This document shows positions 2,834-20,298 of a stretch of 20,298 nt of DNA, in pieces. The stretch's first letter is position 1; each line of letters starts with the position of its first letter. The position numbers and the translations under genes are program-made. Below the pieces are notes generated by a model. The model was not told where the DNA came from, did no database searches, and saw only the letters and a program-made list of their open reading frames with translations. The stretch is from a virus (taxonomy: Duplodnaviria; Heunggongvirae; Uroviricota; Caudoviricetes), in IMG/VR virus record IMGVR_UViG_2531839662_000026, one strand, 5' to 3'.

Positions 2834-2855
2834 TGGCGACAAAATGGCGGCAGCG
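2834..2855. repeat. attR core candidate (tggcgacaaaatggcggcagcg)
   Basis: Matches 21 of 22 bases to 20259-20280 inside the 3' end of int; sits immediately beyond the ogr stop, where attP lies in P2/186. Confidence 0.6.
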
Positions 2856-3074
2856 TCAAAGAGAGAGCGCCACCTGTCCTGATTTCATTGGATGCGGCTG
2901 AACCGGATTTGACTCTTTTGGCGTTGCAATCGAACGAACAAAAGTTTCATGGGTAACAAAAGTATGGCTGCAGTTAATGTTCTGGCACTGGTTGTAACGC
3001 TCTTTGGTCAATGAAGATACCTGAAAACTGCTGCGAGTATGGGCGGCACTTCCACACAGTGGGCAAATCATCAT
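2856..3074 (-). CDS. ogr: Late-gene transcription activator, Ogr (P2) / B (186) family zinc-finger protein, ~72 aa
   Basis: Translation MMICPLCGSAAHTRSSFQVSSLTKERYNQCQNINCSHTF... carries the C-x2-C...C-x4-C zinc finger and aligns with recalled P2 Ogr (MFHCPLCQHAAHARTS...KERYHQCQNVNCS). Start trimmed to the ATG at 3074; the ORF track extends upstream to 3107. Confidence 0.85.
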   Translation of the reverse strand: MMICPLCGSAAHTRSSFQVSSLTKERYNQCQNINCSHTFVTHETFVRSIATPKESNPVQPHPMKSGQVALSL

Positions 3075-3164
3075 TTTTCGAGCTCTCCCCATTTTTGCTA
3101 AATTCACAATAATGATACCGCATTATTCCATTTTGCAAACTTAAAAGTTCTCCATTGCGAAGAA

Positions 3165-4265
3165 TCATTCCATTTCGAAATCATCAATCCTCACTTCAAG
3201 CTCCAGACTGGTTGTAAAACCGTTATCCGGGCTGACGGTATGTGTCAGAGTCGTAATGGTCCATTCCGCATCATCTATCGGCTGTTTAAAACCACTGACC
3301 TTCACAGGCATTTCCGTGTAGAGATCTGCCCGCCCTTCTGCCAGTTGTAGCGAAAATGACGCAACGCCGCGTTGCAGGCGTTCCCACTGCATTTTCGCCG
3401 CTCGTTCGGCGTTGCTCCGGTTGGCATAAGTGCGATTAAGTACCAGCACGTTTTCATCCGTACCCACCAGGTAATCGCCCTGCTTCGCTTCTGGCTCTTT
3501 CTTCTGCTTCTTAGTTCTGCGCTTACGCTTCACCGTGGTGCTTTCTTTCTTCGCAGGTTCGCGGGTATGCAACCAGCTGGCAATTACGCCCGTGTAGGCT
3601 CCGCGATCTGCCAGGGTAAATCGGTGACTGTCGCCGTCCTTGCGTGTGATAGTGATCACTGGCAGAGGTTTACCAGTGGCGCTTTTGCCCTGCCCCTGCC
3701 GGATGAATAACAGATTGCCATTTTTCACCGACGCGATGGCACCGTACTGTCGCGCCAGCCGCATCAGAAAACTGCCGTCACTCTCATTAGTCTGGTCTAT
3801 ATGCTCCACGGGCTTATCCGACAGGTCTTTACCCAGTGCCATCTTCAGCTTGTGCCGCGCGGCTATTTCCTTCACCACTTCCCCGACGGTGGTCTTATGC
3901 CACGATTTTTCACGGCGGGTATTCAGCGTTTCCCGAAAATCAGCACTTCGCGCCCGGATAGTCAGGCGGTCCGGTGCGCCAGTGTGTTCAATCTCGTCCA
4001 CTGTGAATGCCCCTTTCGGGAAAAGCGGCTGCCCCTTCCAGCCCAGCGCCAGCGTAATAACCGCACCACGGCGCGGCAGCACGATTTTTCCGTCAGCGTC
4101 ATCCAGCTCCAGATCAAGCTGGTCCGCTTCAAAGCCCCGGTTATCCGTCAGCGTCAAACTCATCAGGCGGTTATCCAGCACAGTGGTGATATCCCTGCCC
4201 TCAATACTGATGCTGAATGCGGGAGTTTTGTTGCCTTTGTTAAGCAGTTCAGAGCTGAAATTCAC
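3165..4265 (-). CDS. D: Phage tail protein D (P2 gpD homologue)
   Basis: 366-aa ORF with ...LTDNRGFEADQLDLELDDADGKIVLPRRGAVITLALGW..., matching recalled P2 gpD; located between U' and ogr as in P2. Start probably GTG, overlapping the U stop. Confidence 0.85.
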   Translation of the reverse strand: MNFSSELLNKGNKTPAFSISIEGRDITTVLDNRLMSLTLTDNRGFEADQLDLELDDADGKIVLPRRGAVITLALGWKGQPLFPKGAFTVDEIEHTGAPDRLTIRARSADFRETLNTRREKSWHKTTVGEVVKEIAARHKLKMALGKDLSDKPVEHIDQTNESDGSFLMRLARQYGAIASVKNGNLLFIRQGQGKSATGKPLPVITITRKDGDSHRFTLADRGAYTGVIASWLHTREPAKKESTTVKRKRRTKKQKKEPEAKQGDYLVGTDENVLVLNRTYANRSNAERAAKMQWERLQRGVASFSLQLAEGRADLYTEMPVKVSGFKQPIDDAEWTITTLTHTVSPDNGFTTSLELEVRIDDFEME

Positions 4266-4660
4266 GACAGCAGCCCTCCCACCGTTTTACTGATATCGCT
4301 TAAGGCAGACGTTGCCGTGTCCTGCAGATTATTCAGTTGCGCACTGAGATCACCGAACATATCGGACAGGGATTCATCCACTCGTTTGAGCGACAGGGTG
4401 AACTCAATCCGGCGCGGCATACCGTCGCGGAAAAACTCCGTTTTAGTCTGATTCAGTCCCTCAATCACATACATGCCGTAAATCGTGCCGCTGCCTTCAA
4501 TCAGGGGCCATGCTTTCCCCTGTTCTGCCATCTGCTCCAGTGCCAGCAACGACAGCCTGCCGCCTGTTATTTCCGGCATAAGAACACCGGAAAGCGTCAG
4601 CATGTCGTTTTCCGGTCCCAGAAACTGCGTGGACGGACGTCGGTTTAACGCACCTCCGGT
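4262..4660 (-). pseudogene. U: 5'-truncated tail protein U gene (P2 gpU homologue), fused to an N fragment by an internal deletion
   Basis: ORF 4262-4603 (...GVLMPEITGGRLSLLALEQMAEQGKAWPLIEGSGTIYGMYVIEG...) resembles the C-terminal two-thirds of gpU. The same frame stays open upstream to about 4660 without a start codon, then meets a stop at the junction with N'. Confidence 0.6.
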
Positions 4661-4661
4661 C

Positions 4662-4760
4662 TACGGTGAACTTGCTGGACAGTTCTTCAACTGCCACACC
4701 GTTCAGACGCGCCAGTTGCTGCAGATAAGCGTTAAAAGCAAAGCGGGTATTCTTCTTCAT
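4662..4760 (-). pseudogene. N: Remnant of major capsid protein gene N (first ~33 codons only)
   Basis: ORF 4497-4760 begins MKKNTRFAFNAYLQQLARLNGVAVEELSSKFTV, which matches the recalled N-terminus of P2 gpN (MRQETRFKFNAYLSRVAELNGIDAGDVSKKFTV); similarity ends abruptly after FTV. Sits 16 nt downstream of O, as N does in P2. Confidence 0.6.
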
Positions 4761-4776
4761 CAGGTTTTGTGCTCCA

Positions 4777-5610
4777 TCAGCAATTGGTCAGAGTGTCAGC
4801 GGGGGCGTTACCGCCTGTTGCACGCTGGCGGTAGTCCTGGCGGCTGTCTTCATGGCTCAGCTTGTCCACCAGTTCGTTAAAGGCGGTCTGCTGTGCCTGC
4901 AGGGCAGTCTCCAGCTCAGACAGGCGTTCTTCCTGCTCAGACAGGGATTTTTCGGTGCGCGCACTCAGGTTCTGCTGCTCAGTGGCGACCAGTTCCACGG
5001 CCTTATGCACATCAGAGAACCGGGCGTCATCGGACTGCTCTTTTTTGGTGAACAGCGCCGTGACACGGGCAAACAGGGACGGTTTGTCATCCTGGATTTC
5101 TTCCAGTTCGATCACCGTTTCCTCTGCAGCGGTAAAAAGATTGGCGGGATTCTGCTTGCGGTTTGCCAGCGGGTTATGGGCTGCACTGGCGCTGAATGTC
5201 AGCATTTCAGTGCCCAGACTGGCAGGGTCATCAGTGGCAGCCAGGCCGACCAGGTAGGCTTTGCCCGTATCAGCGAACTTCGGGCTAACTTCCATAGATG
5301 TGAATAATTTCTGGCCTTTTTTCACCAGTTCCACCAGGGACTCCGTTGGCTCAACGTCGGCATACAGCGCCATCTTGCCTGCCAGCGGACCTTCCTTGAT
5401 TTCTTCAGCAAACAGCGCCGTCACCTTGCCGTAGCGGTTAAAGGTGCTGTCCGGCAGATAAGACTTGATGTGCTCAAGGTTAATCAGCGCGGTATACACC
5501 GCCGGGTTGTAGCTGGCTGCCATCTGTTCCAGCCATTCACGCTGGATTTCGCGTCCGTCGGTGGTGGCACCTTCCACCCCGATGCGAAAACGCTTTGCTT
5601 TCACTGTCAT
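4777..5610 (-). CDS. O: Capsid scaffolding protein (P2 gpO homologue)
   Basis: 277-aa ORF with FRIGVEGATTDGREI...INLEH...YLVGLAATDDPASLGTEML...KATGG...; matches recalled P2 gpO; divergent from P as in P2. Confidence 0.88.
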   Translation of the reverse strand: MTVKAKRFRIGVEGATTDGREIQREWLEQMAASYNPAVYTALINLEHIKSYLPDSTFNRYGKVTALFAEEIKEGPLAGKMALYADVEPTESLVELVKKGQKLFTSMEVSPKFADTGKAYLVGLAATDDPASLGTEMLTFSASAAHNPLANRKQNPANLFTAAEETVIELEEIQDDKPSLFARVTALFTKKEQSDDARFSDVHKAVELVATEQQNLSARTEKSLSEQEERLSELETALQAQQTAFNELVDKLSHEDSRQDYRQRATGGNAPADTLTNC

Positions 5611-5688
5611 GAGCCGTGCTCCGTTAGAAAAAACTTACTGGAGCCTTATGGTTGCGGTGATGGGGGCAGTGAAACAATGCGCGGTATT

Positions 5689-5706
5689 TGTACCGACAAC
5701 CACACA
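5689..5706. promoter_or_regulatory. TGT-N12-ACA dyad (tgtaccgacaaccacaca), candidate Ogr/B-dependent late promoter element in the O/P divergent intergenic region
   Basis: Motif read from sequence. P2-family late promoters carry a TGT-N12-ACA activator site upstream of the -35 position; this one lies ~87 bp upstream of the O start codon. Confidence 0.3.
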
Positions 5707-5752
5707 AACCGCAGGCGGGGAAAGCCTTCATTCAAGGTTGTAGGTTTGTGCC

Positions 5753-7519
5753 ATGAACACCACACTGACACCCGCAGATCTCGATCCCCGTCGGCAGGCC
5801 ATGCTGCTGTACTTTCAGGGATACCGCGTAGCCCGCATTGCTGAAATGCTGGGCGAGAAAGTTGCAACCGTTCACAGCTGGAAAAAACGCGACAAGTGGG
5901 GTGACTATGGGCCGCTGGATCAGATGCAGCTCACCACCGCCGCACGCTACTGCCAGCTCATCATGAAGGAGCACAAAGAAGGGAAAGATTTCAAAGAGAT
6001 TGACCTGCTGGCGCGCCAGTCGGAGCGCCACGCGCGGATCGGCAAGTTTAACAATGGCGGCAACGAAGCCGACTTAAACCCTAACGTCGCCAACCGCAAT
6101 AAAGGCCCACGCCGTCAGCCGGAAAAGAATGTTTTCACCGATGAGCAGATTGAGAAGCTGGAAGAAATCTTCCATTCCTCCATGTTCAACTACCAGCGCC
6201 ACTGGTGGGAAGCCGGAAAAACCAACCGCATCCGCAACCTGCTGAAGTCACGCCAGATCGGCGCGACCTTTTACTTTGCCCGTGAAGCCCTGATTGACGC
6301 CCTGCTTACCGGACGTAACCAGATTTTCCTTTCCGCCAGCAAGGCACAGGCCCACGTCTTTAAGCAGTACATCATCGACTTCGCCAAAGAAGTGGGGGTG
6401 GAGTTGAAAGGCGATCCGATGGTGCTTCCTAACGGGGCCACGCTTTACTTCCTCGGCACCAATGCCCGCACGGCCCAGAGTTATCACGGCAACCTGTATC
6501 TGGATGAATATTTCTGGATACCGAAATTCCAGGAGCTGCGCAAAGTGGCTTCCGGTATGGCTATTCACAAAAAATGGCGACAAACCTATTTTTCCACGCC
6601 ATCCAGCCTGACACACAGTGCTTATCCGTTCTGGTCCGGTGCGCTGTTCAACCGTGGGCGCAACAAGGCCGACAAGGTGGACATCGACCTGTCCCACAGC
6701 AATCTGGCCCCCGGCCTGCTGTGCGCAGACGGGCAATACCGCCAGATAGTCACCGTGGAAGATGCGGTGCGCGGCGGCTGTAACCTGTTCGACCTTGACC
6801 AGTTGCGCATGGAGTACAGCCCGGACGAATACCAGAACCTGCTGATGTGCGAGTTTGTGGACGATCTCGCGTCCGTATTTCCGCTCAGCGAGCTGCAGGC
6901 GTGCATGGTGGACAGCTGGGAAGTCTGGACCGACTTTCATGCACTGGCTCTGCGCCCGTTTGGCTGGCGCGAAGTGTGGATCGGTTATGACCCGGCAAAA
7001 GGTACGCAAAACGGCGACAGCGCCGGATGCGTGGTGGTGGCACCGCCAGCCGTGCCTGGTGGTAAGTTCCGCATTCTTGAGCGTCACCAGTGGCGCGGGA
7101 TGGACTTCCGCGCCCAGGCTGACGCCATCAAAAAACTGACCGAACAGTACAACGTGACCTATATCGGTATCGACTCAACCGGCGTTGGTCACGGGGTTTA
7201 TGAGAACGTGAAAGCGTTCTTTCCTGCCGTCCGGGAGTTTGTCTACAACCCCAATGTTAAAAACGCCCTGGTACTCAAGGCCTACGACATTATCAGCCAC
7301 CGCCGTCTGGAGTTTGACGCCGGGCACACCGACATTGCGCAGTCATTTATGGCAATCCGTCGCGCTACCACTGCCAGTGGCAACCGCCCGACCTATGAAG
7401 CCAGCCGCAGCGAAGAAGCCAGCCATGCCGATCTGGCCTGGGCAACAATGCACGCACTGTTTAACGAACCGCTGCAGGGCGAGTCCGCCAATACCAGCAA
7501 TATTGTGGAGATTTTTTGA
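5753..7519 (+). CDS. P: Terminase large (ATPase) subunit (P2 gpP homologue)
   Basis: 588-aa ORF MNTTLTPADLDPRRQAMLLYFQGYRVARIAEMLG... matches recalled P2 gpP in sequence and length; stop overlaps the Q start (tgATG). Confidence 0.9.
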   Translation: MNTTLTPADLDPRRQAMLLYFQGYRVARIAEMLGEKVATVHSWKKRDKWGDYGPLDQMQLTTAARYCQLIMKEHKEGKDFKEIDLLARQSERHARIGKFNNGGNEADLNPNVANRNKGPRRQPEKNVFTDEQIEKLEEIFHSSMFNYQRHWWEAGKTNRIRNLLKSRQIGATFYFAREALIDALLTGRNQIFLSASKAQAHVFKQYIIDFAKEVGVELKGDPMVLPNGATLYFLGTNARTAQSYHGNLYLDEYFWIPKFQELRKVASGMAIHKKWRQTYFSTPSSLTHSAYPFWSGALFNRGRNKADKVDIDLSHSNLAPGLLCADGQYRQIVTVEDAVRGGCNLFDLDQLRMEYSPDEYQNLLMCEFVDDLASVFPLSELQACMVDSWEVWTDFHALALRPFGWREVWIGYDPAKGTQNGDSAGCVVVAPPAVPGGKFRILERHQWRGMDFRAQADAIKKLTEQYNVTYIGIDSTGVGHGVYENVKAFFPAVREFVYNPNVKNALVLKAYDIISHRRLEFDAGHTDIAQSFMAIRRATTASGNRPTYEASRSEEASHADLAWATMHALFNEPLQGESANTSNIVEIF

Positions 7520-8553
7520 TGGGAAAGAGTAAGAAGAACCGCGCTGCGTCGACGAAACAGATCCAGCATAAAAGCCAGACTTCAGCCGAAGCATTCAGCT
7601 TCGGTGATCCCGTTCCTGTTCTGGACCGCCGCGAACTGCTGGACTATGTGGAATGCGTACAGATGGAGTGTTGGTACGAGCCACCCGTAAGTTTTGACGG
7701 ACTGGCGCGCACCTTCCGGGCTGCCGTGCATCACAGTTCCCCGATTGCAGTAAAGTGCAACATTCTGACCAGTACCTATATCCCTCATCCGCTGCTCAGC
7801 CAACAGGCTTTTTCGCGTTTTGTACAGGACTATCTGGTATTTGGTAACGCCTACCTGGAGAAACGCACGAACCGATTCGGTGAAGTTATCGCCCTTGAGC
7901 CTGCGCTGGCAAAATACACCCGACGCGGGTTAGACCTGGATACCTACTGGTTTGTGCAATACGGTATGACAACCCAGCCGTATCAGTTCACGAAAGGCAG
8001 CATTTTTCAGCTGATGGAACCGGACATCAACCAGGAGATCTACGGCCTGCCCGGCTATCTTTCTGCCATCCCATCCGCTTTGCTCAACGAGTCCGCCACG
8101 CTGTTCCGCCGCAAGTATTACATTAACGGCAGTCATGCCGGCTTCATCATGTACATGACCGATGCCGCGCAGAACCAGGAGGATGTGAACAACCTCCGCA
8201 ACGCAATGAAAAGCGCCAAAGGTCCGGGTAACTTCCGCAATCTGTTTATGTACTCGCCTAATGGTAAAAAAGACGGACTTCAGATTATCCCGTTGTCAGA
8301 AGTCGCAGCGAAGGATGAATTTCTGAATATCAAAAATGTTAGTCGCGATGACATGATGGCGGCACACCGCGTGCCGCCACAGATGATGGGGATAATGCCA
8401 AATAATGTTGGGGGGTTTGGGGATGTGGAGAAGGCAAGTAATGTATTTGTACGCAATGAACTAATACCATTGCAAAAAAGATTTGAAGAGTTAAATGTTT
8501 GGTTAAAAGAAAAAGTGATACAGTTCGAAGAATATAAACTTCATTCAAATTAG
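7519..8553 (+). CDS. Q: Portal (capsid vertex) protein (P2 gpQ homologue)
   Basis: 344-aa ORF MGKSKKNRA...FSFGDPVPVLDRRELLDYVEC...LARTFRAAVHHSSPIAVKCNILTSTYIPHP... matches recalled P2 gpQ closely. Start set at the ATG at 7519. Confidence 0.9.
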   Translation: MGKSKKNRAASTKQIQHKSQTSAEAFSFGDPVPVLDRRELLDYVECVQMECWYEPPVSFDGLARTFRAAVHHSSPIAVKCNILTSTYIPHPLLSQQAFSRFVQDYLVFGNAYLEKRTNRFGEVIALEPALAKYTRRGLDLDTYWFVQYGMTTQPYQFTKGSIFQLMEPDINQEIYGLPGYLSAIPSALLNESATLFRRKYYINGSHAGFIMYMTDAAQNQEDVNNLRNAMKSAKGPGNFRNLFMYSPNGKKDGLQIIPLSEVAAKDEFLNIKNVSRDDMMAAHRVPPQMMGIMPNNVGGFGDVEKASNVFVRNELIPLQKRFEELNVWLKEKVIQFEEYKLHSN

Positions 8554-8559
8554 CTTTAA

Positions 8560-8578
8560 GGCTGCCAGTTTGGCAGCC
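8560..8578. terminator. Hairpin (ggctgcca-gtt-tggcagcc) between convergent Q and the ATPase cargo gene
   Basis: Perfect 8-bp inverted repeat in the 32-bp gap between two convergent stop codons. No strong T-run, so termination efficiency is uncertain. Confidence 0.35.
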
Positions 8579-8585
8579 AGAACCT

Positions 8586-9836
8586 TTATCGCCATTTTAG
8601 ATAAAAAGCAAAAAATGGATCAGTAATATGCAACTTTCGGTCCTCCTTATCCCAATCTATTACAGGAGTTGAAGCTTCTTCCGTAGCAGCTATTTTAGCC
8701 ATTTTTTCTATAACACGAGTAACCTCATGAGCTTGTGGAGGAGCATCTTGCACCAGTTCGCGTATGGCTGATCTTAACTCCTCATACTGAATACTTTGCA
8801 TTCCTGGTTTCATATGTGACAATGCATATAATACAACTTTATATATATCTACTTCCTCACCACTTTTCAGTTTTCTAGGAATTCTGTCAGTTCGCTGATT
8901 AGGGCCACTAGCTAACTTATCAAATACTATTTTCCCAGTGGATTCTGCAACCTTTCTAAAAATATCATCATCTAAAGAATTAATAACTAACTTACTCGGC
9001 AAAGTTTCTTTAACATTATTTGCTAAGCATATAGCCTTGCAAAACTCTTGCATTAAATGAGGGCTTCCCAATGATTCATTGGCAATTTTATCAATTACTG
9101 AATCACTAACTTCCATGTTTAACAGAGGAAATCCCACTTTTGCTATTTGTTTTAGTTCATCCATTTCCCACGAAGGCATGGAAATATTTTCTAGCCGTCC
9201 GGTAATTTCTTTTTCAACTTTTACAGCATCATATCTTCGATGTGGAATGGCTATCAGTACAACTGGTACTCCATCAAAAACTAATGGTTTTATCGCTCTA
9301 ATAAAGTTACCTTGTAGGTCACGATCAAGGTAATGAAAGTCATCAATTATAAGACTAGACTTGGTTTGAGAGAGAACTTTTAGTGCAGAACTTTTTGCGG
9401 ATATCGTTCGCGATTTTTTATTACCATTTGACTTTCCATCCGTCTGAACTAAACCAGCCTCACCTGTACCTTTAACAACGAATGCACTTGCGGTCCCCGA
9501 TACCTTACCACTAACTGCAATAGCACTATTTTCTCCAGAATTAACTTCAATACTATGGTAGCCATTTAGTTTTTCTAATACCTGCTCCCAAATATCATCT
9601 TCAGTTGTAATACTCCCACCGTCAATCCATACAACATCATCGTCCATGACTGGGAATACCATTCTTGTAATTACAGTCTTACCAGACTTTGTTTGCCCAG
9701 TTAAAGTCACTAACTTACATAAATTATCTTTAGCACTCTCCAGTTTTCCATGAACCTCTCCTTCAGAGCGCTCAACATAAGTCAATTTCGGCATACCGCC
9801 AGGCACAAAAACTTGTGAAGCACGTTGTTTATCCAT
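8586..9836 (-). CDS. Cargo gene: 416-aa P-loop NTPase (Walker A GQTKSGKT, Walker B LIIDDFH), function unknown; candidate anti-phage or accessory ATPase
   Basis: Long ORF with an ATG start preceded by a GGGAAG Shine-Dalgarno-like sequence. Walker motifs are visible in the translation. AT-rich compared with neighbouring phage structural genes. No homologue recognised from memory. Confidence 0.7.
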   Translation of the reverse strand: MDKQRASQVFVPGGMPKLTYVERSEGEVHGKLESAKDNLCKLVTLTGQTKSGKTVITRMVFPVMDDDVVWIDGGSITTEDDIWEQVLEKLNGYHSIEVNSGENSAIAVSGKVSGTASAFVVKGTGEAGLVQTDGKSNGNKKSRTISAKSSALKVLSQTKSSLIIDDFHYLDRDLQGNFIRAIKPLVFDGVPVVLIAIPHRRYDAVKVEKEITGRLENISMPSWEMDELKQIAKVGFPLLNMEVSDSVIDKIANESLGSPHLMQEFCKAICLANNVKETLPSKLVINSLDDDIFRKVAESTGKIVFDKLASGPNQRTDRIPRKLKSGEEVDIYKVVLYALSHMKPGMQSIQYEELRSAIRELVQDAPPQAHEVTRVIEKMAKIAATEEASTPVIDWDKEDRKLHITDPFFAFYLKWR

Positions 9837-9873
9837 GAATACTTCCCAATTAACACAGCTCTAGTGAACTACG

Positions 9874-9902: not shown

Positions 9903-9944
9903 TTAACATTACATGATTTGAGTATTCAAAGCCACAAGCGCGCG

Positions 9945-9963
9945 CTCGTATCCCCGCCACGCC
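9945..9963 (-). other. Candidate cos (cohesive end) site: - strand reads GGCGTGGCGGGGATACGAG
   Basis: First 13 nt match my recollection of the 186 cos end (GGCGTGGCGGGGAAAGCAT; P2 is GGCGAGGCGGGGAAAGCAC). Lies in a GC-rich non-coding island between the Q-side and A-side gene blocks, where cos is expected. Confidence 0.4.
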
Positions 9964-10123: not shown

Positions 10124-10735
10124 CTACGTAACCACAGTTAATGTGTGCATCCTGTCTCGAATTGCATCACACGTCTCATCAAAAAGCTTGGTGATGGTTG
10201 TATGGTTCAACTCCGCCTCTTTCCAATAATTTTGCCCGTCAAATTCTGGATCGCTATGCTTAAACGATATTGACTCTGTAAGGCATTCCTTCCGGAAACG
10301 GTCCAAGATTATATAAACCTCTGGTGAGATGAACGGTTTGTTAGATTCAACACTTGTAACAAAAGTGTTAAATGCATCAAAAAAAACTTTCAACCTTCTA
10401 AATTTTCTCTCTTCAAATGGTTCGTTGGGGTCAACATGATCCAGCGCAGGCCTCAGCTTAAGCACGCTTTCTCTGGTTTCAAACATCGAATTCCAAATGA
10501 GACTATATGCTGATAACTCCTTATCAAAATACGCTTTCGTTACATAAACAGAATTGTCTAACTTAGCCTTTATTCTTTCATTAGTTGCACTCAGTTGTGA
10601 TTGAAATTCAGCAATATCTTTGTTTAGCCGCGACTTATATCTTTCTAAATAAACTTTCCCGATCCAAACAAATATGCCAGATGCAACAAAAGACACCCCA
10701 CCCAACGAAGCCAGAACTTTAAAGACTAAATCCAT
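10124..10735 (-). CDS. Cargo gene: 203-aa protein with one N-terminal transmembrane helix, function unknown
   Basis: ATG at 10735 with a GGTGG Shine-Dalgarno-like sequence upstream. N-terminus VLASLGGVSFVASGIFVWIG is hydrophobic. AT-rich. A TATAAT -10 hexamer lies about 20-25 nt upstream of the ATG. Confidence 0.6.
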   Translation of the reverse strand: MDLVFKVLASLGGVSFVASGIFVWIGKVYLERYKSRLNKDIAEFQSQLSATNERIKAKLDNSVYVTKAYFDKELSAYSLIWNSMFETRESVLKLRPALDHVDPNEPFEERKFRRLKVFFDAFNTFVTSVESNKPFISPEVYIILDRFRKECLTESISFKHSDPEFDGQNYWKEAELNHTTITKLFDETCDAIRDRMHTLTVVT

Positions 10736-10783
10736 TGCGCCCCCACCTGCAAAAATAGTATTCCATTATAAGCTAATACATTT

Positions 10784-11117: not shown

Positions 11118-11351
11118 TTAGTGCAGCCAGCTGTCGTCTTCCCAAACCTGTTGCATAATTTCCATCACCCGCTTTTTGTCTTCATCAAGCTTTAAGCCAC
11201 TCAGCTCAACGCCGTTTGCCGACCCTTTACGGATGCGGATAGCGGTCTTGGGATAGATGGGTTGCAGGTTGCGGTAAAGCTCGGACTCCAGAGCGTCCAG
11301 GGTAGACTGGCTAATCTTCTGCTCTTTATCGATCATTATTTCAATGCGCAT
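11118..11351 (-). CDS. DinI-family protein (~77 aa)
   Basis: Translation from the internal ATG, MRIEIMIDKEQKISQSTLDALESELYRNLQPIYP...VMEIMQQVWEDDSWLH, aligns with recalled E. coli DinI (MRIEVTIAKTSPLPAGAIDALAGELSRRIQYAFP...ISEILQETWESADDWF). GAGGTG RBS upstream of the ATG at 11351. Confidence 0.75.
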   Translation of the reverse strand: MRIEIMIDKEQKISQSTLDALESELYRNLQPIYPKTAIRIRKGSANGVELSGLKLDEDKKRVMEIMQQVWEDDSWLH

Positions 11352-11361
11352 AAAAGTCACC

Positions 11362-11550
11362 TCAGCTGATGACATCCATTGAGCGGTTGTATTCGTGGCT
11401 TCTGATTTTTGCCATGAGTTCATCAGTCAATTCAGAAACCCACTGCAGGGCCAGCCCCTTCTCTTCATCACTACACTCACTAGCCGCTACAAGCTTAAGA
11501 AAAAAATCAATGCGCTGGAGCTTCAAAGACTCCAAAAAATAGTCCTGCAT
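11362..11550 (-). CDS. Hypothetical 62-aa protein, first gene of the DinI-like operon; possible Tum-like antirepressor N-terminal module
   Basis: ATG at 11550 preceded by a perfect AGGAGG RBS. Position is equivalent to the 186 tum locus, downstream of A and near cos. The function is inferred from position only. Confidence 0.45.
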   Translation of the reverse strand: MQDYFLESLKLQRIDFFLKLVAASECSDEEKGLALQWVSELTDELMAKIRSHEYNRSMDVIS

Positions 11551-11703: not shown

Positions 11704-14118
11704 TTAATACAGGTTCCGCCACTTATCATCTTCCTGCAAACGCTGGTTCCGATAGAAGACACGCAGGCCTGCTCCTGACGGAATACTGCCGCCGCGAAGG
11801 AGTAAATCGACCTCTTTCTCGCTGCCATCAAATCCTCTGGACTTCAGTTCATAGACGAGCTGCTGTCGTTGATGGTCTGTAATTCGCTGTTTGTAGTCTC
11901 TACGCCGTTTCGGTTTCACCAGGCGTAACCTTGCAGCCAGTTCCCGGCGCTCTTTTTTGTTCATACTGTGCAGGTAATCGTGCAACTCCTTGTCATCCAT
12001 GTGGGTAATGTCCGTTCTGGTATCCCCATCAGCTGATTTGTCTTTCCCTTGTTGGTTCAAATTTTCAGCAAGGGGACAGTTATTGCCACGAGTCCAAGGG
12101 GCGCAAGCGCCCTGGTCGGCTGCCGCCTCCTGAACGTCAACGGCCTTACGAACCATTTTCCACTTCACCGCATGAGTGCAGATCTTGCCCTCTGCAATGG
12201 GTGACCAGATGCCATAAATACGAATACCGTGATCGCCATAGGCGGTTGGCTCTTCGTTGATTTCATAAGCGGTTCTGATGAGGTGATATTTACGGGGAAC
12301 CAGTACGCCGCCCTGCTTCATGATATAGGTGGCAAAACAACCAGCATCAGCAGCAGCCAGAATGGCATCAAGGCGCGGGTTATCCAGTACCGGCGCACCT
12401 GCTTTTTTGTCACCCTGTTGCCTTGCCGCCTGACCAGCCAGCAATCGCAGTTCACGGTAAGCCTGACGCCCCGGAATGCCAAAGAAGCGGAATTGCTGAA
12501 CACGATGCAGAGACGCCCAGGCATTAACGTATTCAGCGTTATCACGCAGGGATTTACCCGTTTCCTTGCTGATCTCCCCAGCCAGACCACGCCCGTCAAT
12601 GTTCTTACTGATGTATTTCGCGATATAGCTTGTTGGCGTACCTTTGCGCGGGTTTATCAGCTCAGACTTAAAGCGTGGTCCCGTGTTATTGCCCAGCTCC
12701 TCGCGGTCTTCACGGATGGCAAACTTACGCAGTAATGCAGTGATGGCGCGGCGGTCTTTTTTACGCATGAAACACATGAGATGCCAGTGCACAGTACCGT
12801 CATGATGCGGCTCAGCTACCCGCACGCCATACCAGCGCAACTCGGCTTTATGCATAGCCTTACGAAATGCAGCAAACATGCCGACCAGATAATCGCTACT
12901 TTGTCTTACCGTCGCGTTTGTCCAGGTCGGGTTTGGTCTGCCGTTATTGAGCGTGGAATGGAAACGCGACGGACAGGTGATAGTGTAGAAAACGGCACAG
13001 TCACTGCGCATTTCCGCGATAAGCTCCAGACCTTTAACACAGGCCATCATCTCATTGCGGCGATGCGCCGGGTTGCTGCTGCTGGCGTTTACCACATCTT
13101 CCATATCCAGCGTGTCGCCGTCTTCGTTCACCAGTTCATGAGAACGAAAAAACTCCAGCGACTTACGGCGCTGCTCACGTTTATGCATCACGGCTTCATA
13201 GCTGACATAGGGGGATGCTTTTTTGCTGACCAGGCAGACAGCACGCAACTGCTCTTCCCGCCATTCGCAACGCATCTTCCATAATTTCCGATACCACCAG
13301 TCGGCACACAACATACGCGCCAGCGAACCCGGGATGAGTTCATAGGGCACTGGTTTGCGGCGGTTTCTTTTCCGACGAAGTTTCTCAAATGCAGGCGGGA
13401 TAACATCCAGACGCAGGGTTTCCGCTGCCACCTTTTCCCATGTCTTGCGGATTTCTTCTGGCTTAACGTCATCGGTGGCATACAAATCACCACAAGCGTC
13501 CTCAAGACACATGCTCATATGCGCTGCTACCAGGGTGGACAGGCGTTTCACCTGATCCTGGCTCATTTCAGGCAGGATCAGCAGACCCTCCAGCCCTTGA
13601 TGGCTTGCCATAAAACGGAAAGAAACAGATAGCTGACTGTCACGTACACAATCCAGTCGCTCCAGACATGGCTTAATCGTCTCACGCAAATAGCGGGAAT
13701 AAGCCTTTGGCCTGCCCAGGCTGCTGAAGTATTCAATACGTTGCATCAGCGGCTTGCTGATATGGGAAGGCTGGGCGTTTACGTCCGCCAGAATGACCAT
13801 GTCCGGATTAAAACGCTGCTGCTCATGCGCCAGCTTTGCCCGGCTAATGAGCTTATCCTGCTCCATTTCGCGCTGGACAGGATCACGGGATTCATTAAAG
13901 AAATAACGCTCCCAGACCTGCTCACTCAGTGCCTCGCGGCGCAGTTGTTCCTGCTCGTTATCGGCAGCGTACAGAGTGATCAGGTTTGAAAGTGCAGACT
14001 CCGGCGCAACTTCCGCCGGGTCCAGATAAGGGTTAATGGCCTTTTTCGAGCCGTTCCATGAAAATGCTGCGGCGGCCTCGTTAAAGCCGCTGCAATTGTT
14101 CATATCGTCATGACTCAT
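11704..14118 (-). CDS. A: Replication initiation endonuclease (P2 gpA family rolling-circle initiator)
   Basis: ~800-aa ORF with the conserved tyrosine motif [10 protein letters not shown] and overall similarity to recalled P2/186 A. Start placed at the ATG at 14118, which overlaps the dam stop (ATGA); the ORF track extends to a GTG at 14124. Confidence 0.88.
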
Positions 14119-15196: not shown

Positions 15197-15429
15197 CAGT
15201 GGATCTCCTGCGCTTCGTTCTGGATTGCTTCAGCAGTCACACGCAGCAGTTCTGCCGCTTCGACGTGGTTTAGCTGGCGGGAGGTGATATGACACGCCAG
15301 GCTATCGAGGCGAGCAGCCATTGCTTCAGCCCTTGCCCGGCGTTCTTCCAGACGAGCCTCTGTCAGTAAAAGATTAAGACCTGCATCATCCGGTCCGGTT
15401 TTGGTCGTGAGGGTTTCAATATTACGCAT
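15196..15429 (-). CDS. Hypothetical early-operon protein (~77 aa)
   Basis: ORF with an ATG at 15429 preceded by an AGGAG RBS; its stop overlaps the downstream start (ATGA). No function recognised. Confidence 0.5.
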   Translation of the reverse strand: MRNIETLTTKTGPDDAGLNLLLTEARLEERRARAEAMAARLDSLACHITSRQLNHVEAAELLRVTAEAIQNEAQEIH

Positions 15430-15496
15430 AAGCAATGCTCCTGAATTTAGATAAAGGGATGCCCGGCGGGTTTACGCCATTAATTTCATTAGTTGG

Positions 15497-15838
15497 TTAA
15501 TTCGGCATGGTTAGCCGTCTGGGAAATAAGCTCACCACTGCACGAAAATGATTCATTGCTTTAATCAACTCCCGCTTTTCGTCAGTGGTCAGCTCATTAA
15601 TGCTGATGCTATGACGTTCAGCTGGAATTTTTGCCATAAAGAATATGGCAGCCAGTGCCCGTTTATTTTGTTCATTATTGATATCCCGTGGATCACGCAT
15701 ATCTTTAATAAACCGCTCAAGCTCTGACTCAATATTCAAACCAAAAACTTTCGCCCTTAATTCCGCTATGTGATTAAGTCCATTCAGGCGTTCACCGGGG
15801 CTTAATGGAACAGTCGCCGCAGCGCCTTCAATAGCCAT
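15497..15838 (-). CDS. Hypothetical early-operon protein (113 aa)
   Basis: ATG start with a G-rich RBS; lies in the early lytic operon between cII and A. No motif recognised. Confidence 0.5.
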   Translation of the reverse strand: MAIEGAAATVPLSPGERLNGLNHIAELRAKVFGLNIESELERFIKDMRDPRDINNEQNKRALAAIFFMAKIPAERHSISINELTTDEKRELIKAMNHFRAVVSLFPRRLTMPN

Positions 15839-16002
15839 TTGTTCCCCCGTTTTTTCGTAGATAGTTCTGCCAGCAATTCATCTTGTGAACGGCACGGATG
15901 CCAGCGTTTACCATCCTCACCCATGATCCAGCCGTGACCGTAGTGCATTGCCGGGCTTTGTTTTACCAGCAGCGATGCAAATGATGGTTCTTTCGTCAGC
16001 AT
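15802..16002 (-). CDS. Hypothetical small protein (~66 aa) immediately downstream of cII
   Basis: Internal ATG at 16002 with a GAGGTG RBS. Overlaps the next gene by ~37 nt, so the call is weak. Confidence 0.3.
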   Translation of the reverse strand: MLTKEPSFASLLVKQSPAMHYGHGWIMGEDGKRWHPCRSQDELLAELSTKKRGNKWLLKALRRLFH

Positions 16003-16009
16003 AAGCACC

Positions 16010-16519
16010 TCACAGCAAACCGAATGAAGCACCGAGGCCAGTCACGGTATCAACTGCACTCGCCATCGCAGGATTAGCCTGTAAACGGGCCTGCAATGAA
16101 ACAGCAGCCAGCGCCATCAGTCGTGTTACAGAGTTAATGCTGCTGATAGCATCACGACGACCGGCACTAGTTTTTACATCACCAGATACCGCACCTGCTG
16201 CAACACGTCCGATCTCTGCAGTTGCGCTCATGACGTAATGCGGCAGTTTCTCTTTTGCAACCTCATTAATCGGTACACATGGCAGGCAGTGAATCTGTGC
16301 CAGAAAACCATCTACCAGCGTTGAATCTTCAGTCAGATCGGTAAGCAGCCAGATTTCTGGTGCGGTTAATAAATGAGGTTGAGATGGGTTCAGCTTGTTC
16401 CGCAGAATCTGCACATTCATGCCAGCACGTTCTGCCAGTTGCACCAGGTTGTGGCGCAATGCGAATGCACGACAGGCTTCATCAAAATGTGGATGTTTGG
16501 AAACTTGGTAATCAAACAT
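16010..16519 (-). CDS. cII: CII-like lysogeny-establishment transcription activator (186 CII family, ~169 aa)
   Basis: Translation from the internal Met, [49 protein letters not shown]...[24 protein letters not shown]..., matches recalled 186 CII almost residue for residue. Start trimmed from the ORF-track coordinate 16573 to 16519. Confidence 0.85.
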
Positions 16520-16551
16520 GGTCGACACCCCTGATGTATCCCAAAATGGAA

Positions 16552-16773
16552 CTAGTTGAATACAACATTGCAATCAGTAAGTGCATCAACGGTAAGAGCA
16601 GCAAGGTTGATCATCACCTTTTCTCTTTTCTTGTCTTTCCGAAGGCGATGCCGAGGGATGCGACCGTCAGCCAGCATATCGTTAATTGTGTCGATTGAAA
16701 GACCAGTAAGTTCGCTATAACGCTCAATTGTGACATGTGGCGTATTCAGAGTTATTGAAATGTTAGGGGTCAT
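16552..16773 (-). CDS. apl: Apl-like excisionase / transcriptional repressor (186 Apl, P2 Cox analogue), ~73 aa
   Basis: Translation from the ATG at 16773, [44 protein letters not shown]..., is a small HTH protein; first gene of the early lytic operon, divergent from cI. Match to 186 Apl is from memory. Confidence 0.8.
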
Positions 16774-16868
16774 GATGCAACATCTCCTATTGGCTTGTGG
16801 TGAGCCTGTAGTAATCGTGACAAGTACCCAAATGGGGACAAAACTGATACTAGGATCGCAAAAGAGAT
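16774..16868. promoter_or_regulatory. Immunity switch region between divergent apl and cI (expected site of lytic and lysogenic promoters and CI operators)
   Basis: 95-bp intergenic region between the two divergently oriented regulators. Individual promoter hexamers and operators could not be assigned confidently by eye. Confidence 0.5.
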
Positions 16869-17465
16869 ATGTCAACATCAAAGTACCCAAGTGAGATCAA
16901 AATAAATCCCAATAAAGGTGGTAAGGCTGCGATTGAGCGATTAGTCGAAGCTTATGGCTTTACGACACGACAGGCTTTAGCTGATCACTTGGAAGTATCA
17001 AAAAGCACTCTGGCGAACAGGTATTTGCGGGATACGTTTCCTGCAGACTGGATAATCCAATGTGCTCTTGAAACAGGAACCTCACTGAAATGGTTAACCA
17101 CCGGGCAAGGACTTAAGCAAAGCTCGCTGACAGTAGCCACAGAAGAGCTTCCCAAGTTTCGCCTTACCGCAGGCAAAATGATTGAAGATGGTTCATATGT
17201 ATTCGATTCATCATTTCTTCCTGCAAATCTTTCATCACCAATTGTTATTCAGGATGGGCTTGTCACATACATTTGTGATCAAAAATTTTCTGAAGTACTT
17301 GATGGACACTGGTTAATCAACATCGACGGAACCTATTCCATTCGAAAAATCACAAAGCTTCCAAAAGGTATGATTAAAATTACAACTACAGAGAATAGCT
17401 TTGAATGTGCATTTTCTGATATTGAAGTGGTTGCTTGTATAAGAAGTACAATAGTTTCAAATTGA
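16869..17465 (+). CDS. cI: CI-like immunity repressor (198 aa)
   Basis: ATG start. N-terminal HTH-like segment (RQALADHLEVSKSTLANRYL), plus position and orientation (divergent from apl, same strand as int), fit the 186 CI family. Confidence 0.8.
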   Translation: MSTSKYPSEIKINPNKGGKAAIERLVEAYGFTTRQALADHLEVSKSTLANRYLRDTFPADWIIQCALETGTSLKWLTTGQGLKQSSLTVATEELPKFRLTAGKMIEDGSYVFDSSFLPANLSSPIVIQDGLVTYICDQKFSEVLDGHWLINIDGTYSIRKITKLPKGMIKITTTENSFECAFSDIEVVACIRSTIVSN

Positions 17466-17485
17466 TATAGTAAAAGGATTTAAAA

Positions 17486-19162
17486 ATGAATTCATTTTCC
17501 ATCGTTATATTATTATTAGCATTTCTCGCCCCTGTTCTAGCTATAATATTATTTAAGCAAAGTAAAGAACACAAAGCCGCCATAGATAACCTGACGGCTA
17601 ACAACATAGCCCTTTCCAGCCAACTGAGTGAAAATCAAGAAAAGTTAGCACAGACTGCACGAGATCTATCAGAGCTTGAAGGGCGAGCAGCACCATTATG
17701 GCAATACGAAGAATTGCACAGCGCAGTGATGGAGGCAGAGAATAAGATAAAAAATGCAGACTCAATAGCTAGGCAAAAAATAGAAGAAGCCCAAATAAAG
17801 GCAGCTAAGACAGTAAACGAAGCAAGTTATCAAGCTCAGATAACAATAAGCAACGCTAATAGCGAAGCTATAGCAATCACCAAAGACGCTCGCGATGCAC
17901 GCCTGAAAGCCAAAGAACGTCTTGATAATGCCAACAGTAAAGCAAATGAGCTGATCTCAAATGCTAATGACAACGCAGTAAAAATTATTACCGATGCAGA
18001 AGAAAGAGCAAAAGAGATTGCTGGTTCAGCATATGAAGCTAAAGAGTTTGCAGAAAAATATGAAGCAGTTGCCAAATCAATGAAAAATAAAATTGAAGGT
18101 TATGGCGATGAATGGATCATCCCTAACCGTAGTGTACTTGATGAATTGGCAGAAAATTATGAGTTTACAGATGCAGGCAAGGAATTACAAAAAGCCAGGG
18201 AGTTAACAAAATCATTAATAAAAACTAATAAAGCAGCTTCGTGTGATTATGTTGAGCAAAACAGGCGTAATACTGCTATCAACTTTGTTTTGGATGCCTT
18301 CAATGGAAGAGTTGACAGTATTTTATCAAAAGTCAAACACAACAATTTTGGAAAACTTTCCCAAGAAATAAAAGATGCATTTCAACTTGTAAATTATAAT
18401 GGCTCTGCTTTTAGATCCGCAAAAATAAGTGACATCTATCTTCAGGCACGACTCAACGAGCTAAAATGGGGAGTTGCAGTTAATGAAATTATGCTCGAAG
18501 AAAAAGAGGAGCAAAGAAGGATTAAAGAACAGCTTCGTGAAGAGGAAAGAGCTCGTAGAGAGTATGAAAAAGCGATAAAAGAAGCCGAAAAAGAAGAAAA
18601 AGCTATTCAGCAAGCTATAAATAAAGCAACGAAAGAGCTTATGCTTGCAAATGAAGAACAACGCTTAGCTTTAGAGCAAAAAATAGCTGAACTACAGTTA
18701 AAATATGAAGAAGCTGAAGCTAAAAACCAACGAGCTATTTCTATGGCTCAACAAACTAGATCAGGCCATGTTTATATAATTAGCAATATTGGCTCATTTG
18801 GCGAAGATGTATATAAAATTGGAATGACACGCCGCCTTGAACCACTTGATCGTGTTCGTGAACTTGGGGATGCTAGTGTTCCTTTTTCGTTCGATGTTCA
18901 TGCGATGATTTATAGTGATGATGCACCGTCATTAGAAAATCATCTGCATAAAGTCTTCAACGAAAAGCAGGTCAATAAAATTAACTCACGAAAAGAGTTT
19001 TTTAACGTAAATATTAAAGAAATTAAATCGGTTATTGAAGATATGAACATCAATGCCCACTGGACAATGTTTGCAGAGGCGAAAGAATATAGAGAGTCAC
19101 TAGCTATTGAGCAGGAACGCAAAGCAGCCACTTCCGCCAACGATGAACTACATGTTGCTTAG
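17486..19162 (+). CDS. Cargo gene: 558-aa protein with an N-terminal transmembrane helix, a long coiled coil and a C-terminal T5orf172/GIY-YIG-like domain; candidate lysogen-expressed defence or exclusion factor
   Basis: ATG with an AAGGA RBS 8 nt upstream, 20 bp after the cI stop. Hydrophobic N-terminus FSIVILLLAFLAPVLAIILF. Strongly A/E/K/Q-rich middle with repeated NANS/NAND motifs. C-terminus GHVYIISNIGSFGEDVYKIGMTRRLEPLDRVRELGDASVPFSFDVH...EFFNVNIKEIKSVIEDMN fits the T5orf172 (MUG113) pattern as I recall it. Markedly AT-rich. Confidence 0.8.
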   Translation: MNSFSIVILLLAFLAPVLAIILFKQSKEHKAAIDNLTANNIALSSQLSENQEKLAQTARDLSELEGRAAPLWQYEELHSAVMEAENKIKNADSIARQKIEEAQIKAAKTVNEASYQAQITISNANSEAIAITKDARDARLKAKERLDNANSKANELISNANDNAVKIITDAEERAKEIAGSAYEAKEFAEKYEAVAKSMKNKIEGYGDEWIIPNRSVLDELAENYEFTDAGKELQKARELTKSLIKTNKAASCDYVEQNRRNTAINFVLDAFNGRVDSILSKVKHNNFGKLSQEIKDAFQLVNYNGSAFRSAKISDIYLQARLNELKWGVAVNEIMLEEKEEQRRIKEQLREEERARREYEKAIKEAEKEEKAIQQAINKATKELMLANEEQRLALEQKIAELQLKYEEAEAKNQRAISMAQQTRSGHVYIISNIGSFGEDVYKIGMTRRLEPLDRVRELGDASVPFSFDVHAMIYSDDAPSLENHLHKVFNEKQVNKINSRKEFFNVNIKEIKSVIEDMNINAHWTMFAEAKEYRESLAIEQERKAATSANDELHVA

Positions 19163-19220
19163 CAATGTATGTTTCATAGCAATCACACATTGATTACTGG
19201 TTGTATATACAGTTAAATTT

Positions 19221-19245
19221 AGCCCTCTGATATGAGGGCTTTTTT
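19221..19245 (+). terminator. Rho-independent terminator candidate (agccctc-tgatat-gagggct + TTTTT) ending one base before the int ATG
   Basis: 7-bp perfect stem followed by ttttt, read from sequence; the int start codon follows at 19246. Confidence 0.5.
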
Positions 19246-20298
19246 ATGGCAGTACGAAAACTCACCACAGGAAAATGGCTTTGCGAATGTTACCCCGCCG
19301 GACGTAGTGGACGTCGTGTGCGTAAACAATTCGCCACCAAAGGCGAAGCACTGGCTTTTGAGCGTCACACGATGGAAGAAACCGAAGCAAAGCCCTGGCT
19401 AGGTGAATCAGTGGATCGTCGAACACTGAAAGACGTGGTTGAGCTATGGTTCAAACTACATGGTAAATCACTGACAGCTGGGCAGCATGTCTATGACAAA
19501 TTGCTGCTGATGGTTGACGCTCTGGGCAATCCCCTTGCAACTGATCTAACCTCTAAAATGTTTGCCCACTATCGAGATAAACGCCTGACAGGTGAGATCT
19601 ACTTCAGCGAGAAATGGAAGAAAGGAGCAAGCCCGGTCACCATTAACCTGGAGCAAAGCTATCTAAGTAGTGTTTTTAGCGAACTATCCCGCCTGGGCGA
19701 ATGGTCGTATCCGAACCCACTGGAGAACATGCGAAAATTCACCATCGCAGAAAAAGAGATGGCATGGCTTACCCATGAGCAGATTGTTGAATTACTGGCT
19801 GATTGCAAACGTCAGGACCCAATTCTGGCACTGGTAGTTAAGATATGCTTAAGCACAGGCGCACGCTGGCGAGAAGCCATAAATCTTACTCGTTCACAGG
19901 TGACCAAATACCGAATTACCTTTGTAAGAACGAAGGGGAAGAAAAATAGAAGCATCCCTATCAGTAAAGAGCTTTACGAAGAGATCATGGCGCTTGATGG
20001 GTTCAATTTCTTCACAGACTGCTATTTTCAATTTTTATCCGTGATGGAAAAAACGTCTATCGTGCTCCCTCGCGGTCAACTCACACACGTTCTGCGCCAT
20101 ACGTTTGCGGCGCACTTCATGATGTCGGGTGGAAACATTCTGGCCTTACAAAAAATTCTCGGACACCACGATATAAAAATGACTATGCGTTACGCACATC
20201 TGGCACCGGATCATCTGGAAACGGCGCTCCGTTTCAATCCTCTGGCAACGCTGCCAAGTGGCGACAAAGTGGCGGCAGCGGTTGGCATTACCCCGTAA
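19246..20298 (+). CDS. int: Tyrosine integrase, P2/186 family (350 aa)
   Basis: Translation aligns along its length with recalled P2 Int (e.g. CLSTGARW.EA..L....V....ITF..TK, HVLRHTFA.HFMM.GG.I..LQ.ILGH..I..TM.YAH.AP). Its 3' end contains the att core copy; stop at 20296-20298. Confidence 0.9.
   Translation: MAVRKLTTGKWLCECYPAGRSGRRVRKQFATKGEALAFERHTMEETEAKPWLGESVDRRTLKDVVELWFKLHGKSLTAGQHVYDKLLLMVDALGNPLATDLTSKMFAHYRDKRLTGEIYFSEKWKKGASPVTINLEQSYLSSVFSELSRLGEWSYPNPLENMRKFTIAEKEMAWLTHEQIVELLADCKRQDPILALVVKICLSTGARWREAINLTRSQVTKYRITFVRTKGKKNRSIPISKELYEEIMALDGFNFFTDCYFQFLSVMEKTSIVLPRGQLTHVLRHTFAAHFMMSGGNILALQKILGHHDIKMTMRYAHLAPDHLETALRFNPLATLPSGDKVAAAVGITP
20259..20280. repeat. attL core candidate (tggcgacaaagtggcggcagcg) inside the 3' end of int
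   Basis: Matches 21 of 22 bases to 2834-2855. Confidence 0.6.

Follow-up and report, generated by a model that had tools for sequence, protein, structure and literature searches.

The subject here is a prophage in the IMG/VR virus record IMGVR_UViG_2531839662_000026, a stretch of 20,298 nucleotides (referred to below as the window) that is 100% identical to the minus strand of Escherichia coli UMNF18 (NZ_AGTD01000001.1). The prophage carries a 22-base direct repeat, with one copy close to each of its ends. The two 22-mers are best read as arm-type binding sites of the prophage's own integrase (Int), flanking an attachment core at the 3' end of the host small RNA (sRNA) gene rybB, and not as the recombination core itself; from sequence comparison, we put the probability of this reading at about 0.88. 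That the repeat is functional in some way is most likely. The true attachment core, as the comparisons below show, is the last 14 bases of rybB and not the 22-mer. An original prediction had taken the 22-mer to be the attachment (att) core, duplicated on integration, in which case the prophage would run from 2834 to 20280 and the last six codons of int would belong to the host. We see virtually no chance that this is correct.

The direct repeat

The repeat is as it had originally been described, in its coordinates, in the identity of its two copies, and in its position relative to the ogr stop and the end of int. The 22-mer TGGCGACAAARTGGCGGCAGCG is found in two copies on the plus strand, which agree at 21 of 22 positions with a single position that differs, and none of 100 dinucleotide-preserving shuffles matched it, so that the pair is not due to chance. 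The left copy stops one base short of the stop codon of ogr (2856-2858, minus strand). The right copy lies within the final codons of the open reading frame (ORF) for a 350-residue tyrosine integrase, the end of which, at 20298, is also the last base of the window. Each copy consists of two TGGCGRCA units with 11-base spacing, an arrangement that has only these two perfect matches in the window. A direct repeat that is far beyond chance, and that stands beside the ogr stop and the 3' end of int, is where the attP site of a P2-type phage would be expected, and this is what speaks in favour of the 22-mer as the core.

The insertion site and the attachment core

In UMNF18, 104 bases separate the int stop codon from rcdA, after which come ybjJ and ybjI (this locus is called L001 below, and its position 7099 is window position 20298). 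K-12 MG1655, CRE1493 and ATCC 25922 are free of the insert, and have ybjL, 174 bases, and then rcdA. The original prediction was thus right in placing rcdA directly after ybjL in K-12, and in regarding the insertion as variable between strains. It had described the element as a 186-like prophage beside ybjL. A P2/186-family prophage is indeed present, lying between ybjL and rcdA; the term 186-like holds only for its lysogeny switch and for the type of its Int. The junction of ybjL with ogr is present in approximately 1115 of 5426 complete E. coli genomes, and this int in approximately 1119 of them; a prophage of this family is present at rybB in roughly a fifth of complete E. coli genomes.

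It had been proposed that prophage-free strains be inspected for a single copy of the 22-mer. This was done, and there is no copy between ybjL and rcdA: none was found, allowing up to 4 substitutions, in the empty-site loci of CRE1493 (L003) and ATCC 25922 (L004), and none is visible on inspection of the ybjL-rcdA intergenic sequence of K-12, CRE1493 and ATCC 25922. Nor do the 22-mers lie where host homology ends. On the left, homology with the empty site ends at 2778 (K-12, CRE1493) or 2790 (ATCC 25922), which is 44-56 bases before the left 22-mer, and on the right it restarts about 107 bases after the right 22-mer, the sequence from L001 7188 being that of a K-12-type empty site. The right-hand boundary is beyond the window, with host sequence resuming at L001 7188-7200, 89-101 bases past the int stop. 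The empty sites without a 22-mer, and the ends of host homology lying elsewhere, both contradict the 22-mer as a duplicated core.

In contrast, the sequence ATGGGTTTTTTGTT(GCCTGAAATTTA) has both of the properties that the 22-mer lacks: it has a copy at the empty site, and it is positioned exactly where host homology ends on both sides. The sequence common to the two att sites is ATGGGTTTTTTGTT; the bases after it are GCCTGAAATTTA at attL and ATCTAAAACTTA at attR. Because host sequence lies to the left of this 14-mer at attL and to the right of it at attR, strand exchange occurred within the 14 bases 2765-2778. From core to core, the prophage is 17,608 bases long, running from 2765 to the equivalent of window position 20373, and its right end is 75-100 bases outside the window. 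There are two alleles of the empty site just past the U-tract of rybB. K-12 (L054) and CRE1493 (L003 3480-3491) have ATCTAAAACTTA, and ATCC 25922 (L004 3480-3491) has GCCTGAAATTTA, which matches the phage core across all 26 bases. In UMNF18, attR has the K-12-type allele ATCTAAAACTTA and attL has the phage version GCCTGAAATTTA.

The target gene, rybB, is a sigma-E-dependent sRNA gene, and was missed in the original prediction. The Rfam model RF00110 matches at 2700-2778 with 105.3 bits (gathering score 40), over its full length (1-79 of 79), and the match overlaps the start of the core at 2765. K-12 has rybB annotated between ybjL and rcdA. The 82 nucleotides from 2697 are identical to K-12, and rybB is therefore rebuilt intact at attL. 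The 14 bases of the core are the 3' end of rybB, made up of the end of the terminator stem and the U-tract, and in some host alleles all 26 bases are identical. At attR, the phage has a short hairpin of its own, AACCCGTTTACATAAATGGGTT (-9 kcal/mol), ahead of the shared T-run, in a position to end transcription of int. A reading of the core hairpin as a terminator for ybjL was dropped, as the K-12 annotation and Rfam show this hairpin to be the terminator of rybB. A transfer RNA (tRNA) or transfer-messenger RNA (tmRNA) target, as used by 186 and Fels-2, is likewise out: ARAGORN found no tRNA or tmRNA in the window, and the target is the sRNA gene.

A contiguous attP in a related phage

The two ends of the prophage were joined at the core (L001 6700-7187 plus window 2779-3200, 910 nucleotides in all) and the join was searched against a phage collection. 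It is contiguous, at 98.5% identity, in Klebsiella phage KP12 (contig OM835953.1), where the order is int, 22-mer, core, 22-mer-like site, ogr. Since the join is contiguous in KP12, both 22-mers and the whole of int are phage DNA. This includes the final six int codons that had been given to the host: the KP12 int ORF ends in the same ...GCGGTTGGCATTACCCCGTAATAA, its last six codons (VGITP*) are identical, and in KP12 they are followed by the core and ogr. When the whole window is compared with KP12 by blastn, the alignment begins exactly at 2765.

An independent annotation is available for Klebsiella phage 4LV2017 (Peduoviridae, Elveevirus). Here the depositors marked ATGGGTTTTTTGTTGCCTG(C) as attL/attR, a core of 19-20 bases, and the phage carries the exact 22-mer between this core and ogr. 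KP12 has the two copies, together with the complete int, on a single uninterrupted molecule, and what lies between the copies is another shared core; this is difficult to reconcile with the 22-mer as the core. So is its position in relatives inserted at this site, where it is retained 43 bases inward of the junction. The comparison with empty sites and the contiguous attP together rule this candidate out. The order in the excised attP is the 3' end of int with its arm pair, 92 bases, the 26-base core, 43 bases, the other arm pair, and the ogr stop.

The 22-mers as probable integrase arm sites

The reverse complement of the repeat reads TGCCGCCAYTT + TGTCGCCAYNN, which is to say that there are two 11-base units on each side, all in the same orientation. 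Two types of arm consensus were described by Nilsson et al., tgTGGaCa (P2) and tgccGCCActt (186) (PMC3448106). The units found here match the 186-type consensus of that work, with CGCCA kept in all four. The GenBank record of 186 annotates predicted Int arm-type sequences with the consensus YAYCGCCAYTY, which is matched at 10 of 11 positions by three of the units and at 8 of 11 by TGTCGCCATCG. When 186 itself was scanned, the units were found in tandem pairs that flank its core, with a spacing of exactly 11 bases, and the strand on which they lie, relative to B and int, is the same as here. The int-side pair of the prophage is identical to the 186 sequence TACCGCCACTTTATCGCCATTC at 18 of 22 positions (counted by eye).

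The integrase is of the corresponding type. It is 56% identical to 186 Int and 35% identical to P2 Int, its residues 1-45 align with 186 Int, and it has W11, E14 and Y16 as in 186, where P2 has Y, D and R. These N-terminal residues have been proposed to discriminate 186-type from P2-type arm recognition (PMC3448106).

There are also candidate sites for integration host factor (IHF). Within the 240-nucleotide attP there are 3 IHF-like sites (no more than 1 mismatch to WATCAANNNNTTR), compared to 0.29 in shuffles, and they fall in the intervals that separate the core from each arm. In the consensus of the relatives the IHF-like match is perfect, and the IHF footprints of P2 and 186 are in corresponding places.

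The conservation of the sites was followed in 43 loci (L011-L053), found by scanning IMG/VR with the phage-side core. On the ogr side, TGGCGACAAA-TGGCGGCAG is present in 13 non-identical sequences, always 43 bases past the 26-base core. The frequency of the majority base is 80-100% throughout this arm, except at the variable eleventh base, and falls to 30-60% in the spacers between. The spacer is unrelated in a different P2-like prophage that occupies this site in strain 2c3, and still the 22-mer is identical there and stands at an equal distance. On the int side, 32 non-identical sequences have retained the block from RTGGCGACAAAGTGGCGGCAGCGGTTGGCAT. Some 15 of them have unrelated DNA directly upstream, and there the frame through the arm is a stub of 13-36 residues or another ORF. 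In L014 and L024 the int frame stops sooner (346 and 343 residues), and a separate ORF, of 195 and 240 residues respectively, lies between int and the arm. The int-side block is thus kept without int attached, which places the constraint on the DNA and not on the C-terminal tail of Int.

This bears on the suggestion that the right copy is kept only as code for the C-terminal tail of Int, SGDKVAAAVGITP, the left copy being a functionless relic of an ancient duplication. It is true that the right copy is translated within Int, both in the window and in about half of the relatives. However, some 15 relatives keep the DNA block unjoined to int, L014 and L024 have another ORF in between, and 186 Int has nothing that corresponds to the tail. 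The left copy, though it does not code for protein, is conserved in sequence and position amid diverged spacers. We regard this explanation as very unlikely, and a protein-coding constraint on the right copy was rejected on the ground that relatives keep the block without int attached.

A number of points weigh against the assignment of the 22-mers to Int. The 11-mers have G, and not A, at position 2 of the GenBank 186 consensus. Of the third, inverted, site of 186, the counterpart TAACCACCACT, located just after the int stop, is degenerate in UMNF18. The crossover is located to an interval of 14 bases, and no finer. The sites are assigned to Int on their match to the consensus, their geometry and their conservation, and the proposed roles of IHF and Apl are at the level of a consensus match or of position. 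It could be argued that the repeats are conserved beside the core and bind a different protein, such as the Apl/Cox excisionase, CI or a host factor, or that they serve some other role. The binding partner is assigned here from sequence rather than from physical evidence, and Cox/Apl and IHF likewise bind repeated sites in the attP arms of P2 and 186. Against this, the Cox/Apl sites of P2 and 186 are on one side only, between the core and the int-side arm, whereas the repeats described here are on both sides and in the outer arm positions. The units also match the arm consensus that is annotated as predicted Int arm-type in the 186 record and that has been generalised to 186-type phages, and the N-terminus of Int is of the 186 type. 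We consider a different partner or role to be unlikely, and Int to be the probable one.

Most of the relatives (L011-L053) have AATCGCCACTC right after the int stop, as a third arm-like, inverted motif, the degenerate form TAACCACCACT being found in UMNF18 (L001 7100-7112) and in KP12.

Before integration, the arm pairs flank the core, with exchange occurring within the 14 bases. By analogy with lambda, P2 and 186, the sites may work as follows. The N-terminal domain of Int would bind each pair of 11-base units, and the core-binding and catalytic domains would act at the core; IHF would bend the arms, and the Apl/Cox-like protein would direct excision. On integration, the arm pairs come to lie at opposite ends of the prophage, 17.4 kb apart, and it is because of this that they look like terminal direct repeats. 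The predicted junctions are ...GGTTGATGGGTTTTTTGTT(ATCTAAAACTTA or GCCTGAAATTTA)TCTACTACC... for attB and ...CATAAATGGGTTTTTTGTTGCCTGAAATTTAAGCTG... for attP, the latter with one 22-mer on each side.

Gene content of the prophage

From its predicted genes (Table 1), the element is a P2-family (Peduoviridae) prophage with a 186-type switch, now a strain-specific and defective remnant of 17.6 kb. The genes ogr, D, U', N', O, P and Q, the cos-like site, A, the switch and int are in P2 order, and are 95-97% identical to KP12 in the shared parts. At the DNA level, 186 is matched by blastn in five patches of 66-72%, the cII-fil region being 72%. RefSeq and PHROG identify a 186-type lysogeny module, consisting of CI, CII, Fil, a Cox-like excisionase and a DinI/Tum-like protein. 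The switch genes, as identified from Pfam, PHROG or RefSeq, also include those for TraR-like and DUF2732 proteins, and outside the switch there is a gene for a Dam methylase.

Compared with KP12, the prophage lacks 16,403 bases, the loss starting near codon 34 of N and ending near codon 34 of U. The deletion takes most of N, the gene for the small terminase subunit (M), L, the lysis genes, the tail genes up to T and the start of U, so that of the tail genes only D and most of U are left. The N-U junction is contiguous in 1 of the 5426 genomes (UMNF18), and in approximately 1100 others the two halves map apart; a lineage sharing the deletion was therefore rejected. On its own, the remnant is unable to form particles. 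Both att sites, int, the excisionase gene and the cos-like site have been retained, and it may still be able to excise. As the cos-like site is conserved, the remnant still has a packaging site.

Several of the genes appear to be cargo. The gene for the 416-residue ATPase has a G+C content of 0.35-0.39 and is absent from KP12. A second low-G+C gene at 10124-10735 (minus strand), also absent from KP12, encodes a protein of 203 residues with no function assigned (phrog_26391). These two genes (G+C 0.35-0.44) flank the cos-like site, and probably occupy a variable cargo region beside the portal gene. The cargo gene between cI and int has a G+C content of 0.35-0.40; the same gene is present in KP12, where it is annotated as 'chromosome segregation ATPase'.

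The relatives differ in neighbouring positions. L014 and L024 have a different ORF (359 and 352 residues) between cI and int, and about 15 of the IMG/VR loci have an extra ORF between int and the arm (L014 4125-4712; L024 10978-11700), the two that were examined being without a Pfam match. From this, int seems to have a variable gene slot on each side in this group of phages. In the 2c3 prophage there is an extra gene, encoding a hypothetical protein of 120 residues, between the ogr-side arm and ogr (L002 3748-4110), and its ogr product has 72 residues and is of a different sequence type. Three loci (L013, L031 and L053) have a long hexamer microsatellite of the (CACCAA)n type to the right of the core, and this flank suggests a different host species with the same rybB-type core.

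Table 1. Features of the UMNF18 prophage and its host flank, in window coordinates.
Feature	Position	Strand	Evidence
ybjL (host, aspartate:alanine antiporter), left host flank	935-2620	+	ORF; RefSeq annotation of the identical record
rybB sRNA gene (host), intact	2697-2778	+	Rfam RF00110; K-12 annotation and identity
attL core, ATGGGTTTTTTGTT + GCCTGAAATTTA	2765-2790	.	End of empty-site homology; KP12 alignment starts exactly at 2765
IHF-like site AATCATGATGTTA, between core and ogr-side arm	2801-2813	+	Consensus match only, one mismatch to WATCAANNNNTTR
Predicted ogr-side arm-type site (P arm in P2 naming), TGCCGCCATTT + TGTCGCCATCG, two 11-base units	2831-2852	-	Overlaps 22-mer 2834-2855
Left 22-mer TGGCGACAAAATGGCGGCAGCG	2834-2855	+	
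ogr (late-gene activator, homologue of 186 B)	2856-3074	-	Pfam Ogr_Delta 7e-22; KP12 homologue 219 nucleotides
Gene D (tail/baseplate hub)	3165-4265	-	Pfam Phage_GPD
Gene U, truncated, without about 34 N-terminal codons	4262-4647	-	Pfam Phage_P2_GpU, profile 45-120 of 120 only; KP12 alignment ends at 4647
Deletion junction with 12-base filler ACGCACCTCCGG	4648-4659	.	blastn against KP12
Capsid gene N remnant, first 34 codons or so	4660-4760	-	Aligns with KP12 from 13724 to N start at 13824; RefSeq 'P2 family phage major capsid protein'
Gene O (capsid scaffold)	4777-5610	-	Pfam Phage_GPO 3e-113
Gene P (terminase large subunit)	5753-7519	+	Pfam Terminase_6N, Terminase_6C, Terminase_5
Gene Q (portal)	7516-8553	+	Pfam Phage_portal
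Low-G+C cargo, 416-residue AAA-type ATPase, candidate defence gene	8586-9836	-	PADLOC PDC-S59 1e-31; Pfam AAA_22 weak, just under gathering score
cos-like site GGCGTGGCGGGGATACGAG	9945-9963	-	First 13 nucleotides identical to annotated 186 cos; conserved in KP12
Tum/DinI-like protein (186 SOS antirepressor type)	11118-11423	-	phrog_189 1.5e-31, family of annotated 186 tum products
Replication endonuclease A	11704-14118	-	phrog_91 6e-289; RefSeq
cII-like activator	16010-16519	-	phrog_101; RefSeq
apl/cox-like excisionase and repressor	16552-16773	-	phrog_575 1e-31
CI repressor	16869-17465	+	phrog_4, phrog_34054; RefSeq 'phage repressor protein CI'
Cargo between cI and int, 558-residue DUF4041 + T5orf172/MUG113 protein, PD-Lambda-1 homologue	17486-19162	+	PADLOC PD-Lambda-1 1e-119; Pfam
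int, 186-type tyrosine integrase, wholly phage-encoded	19246-20298	+	Pfam Int_N + Phage_integrase
Predicted int-side arm-type site (P' arm in P2 naming), TGCCGCCACTT + TGTCGCCACTT, in the last int codons	20256-20277	-	Overlaps 22-mer 20259-20280
Right 22-mer TGGCGACAAAGTGGCGGCAGCG	20259-20280	+	
attR core copy, outside the window, reading ...cataaATGGGTTTTTTGTTATCTAAAACTTAtctactaccc...	equivalent to 20373-20398 (L001 7174-7199)		

Implications for annotation

The value of these results is in a corrected annotation, and the current understanding of such phages is unchanged. The terminal direct repeats of P2/186-type prophages can be Int arm sites, and not the att core. Where repeats of this kind are taken as boundaries, both ends of the prophage are misplaced (here by 69 and 118 bases), and codons of int are wrongly given to the host.

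Two wider proposals, which are speculative and which we consider rather improbable, are that the arm-core-arm block is an exchangeable cassette, with uncatalogued hotspots for defence genes flanking int, and that the UMNF18 remnant can still be excised and be mobilised by a co-resident P2-like helper. In relatives, the outer edge of the int-side arm is exactly where mosaic breakpoints are located. There are variable and mostly unannotated genes both in the slot between cI and int (PD-Lambda-1 in the present case) and in the slot between int and the arm (L014, L024). Still present in the remnant are int, apl, both att sites, cos, A, and the terminase and portal genes; it might be excised, and be mobilised by a P2-like helper.

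Comparison with known systems

The rybB site, the 186-type arm consensus and the P2 layout of attP have all been published already, and nothing here departs from the known picture.

Phage 186 (Eganvirus; NC_001317) resembles the prophage in that its core is flanked by tandem pairs of 11-base units, whose orientation with respect to B/ogr and int is also shared. Its Int is 56% identical and has the same W/E/Y residues, and it has switch genes of the same type (CI, Apl, CII, Fil and Tum). It differs in its target, since 186 integrates at the 3' end of a tRNA-Ile gene (ileY) with a common core of 36 bases, whereas the prophage described here uses the 3' end of rybB. In addition, 186 has orf69 between int and the arm, where here the arm is inside int, and it has 3+2 predicted sites, compared with 2+2 clear ones here.

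The layout as a whole is shared with P2 (NC_001895), which has ogr, the P arm, IHF, the core, the Cox/Apl region, and the P' arm inside the last codons of int. In both, each arm has two repeats 11 bases apart, and the gaps between arm and core are 35/86 in P2 and 43/92 here; the order of the structural genes is also shared, as is a target that is not a tRNA. The arm motif of P2 is however TGTGGACA, and its Int is 35% identical, with Y/D/R at the discriminating positions. P2 moreover differs in its core and attB, and its switch is of the C/Cox and not the CI/Apl type.

Lambda targets the intergenic gal-bio attB. With lambda Int and attP the prophage shares a principle, in that the N-terminal domain of Int binds arm sites lying far from the core, in a complex shaped by IHF and an excisionase (PMC3448106). 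The sequences of the lambda arms, their number and their layout are unrelated to those found here.

The insertion locus itself is shared, on published description, with several P2-like prophages. In the E. coli W genome paper, the 'rybB ncRNA' (non-coding RNA) is listed as the insertion site for three of them: Rybb*W in strain W, Rybb*B, with the retron Ec86, in strain B, and Rybb*Cr in strain Crooks (PMC3032704). A 2026 paper places NC-MV, a P2-related prophage of E. coli NC101, between ybjL and rcdA (PMC12803456). Klebsiella phages 4LV2017 and KP12 have the same core, arms and int at 96-98% identity; unlike KP12, the UMNF18 copy is a remnant of 17.6 kb without 16.4 kb of the phage, and its cargo genes are different.

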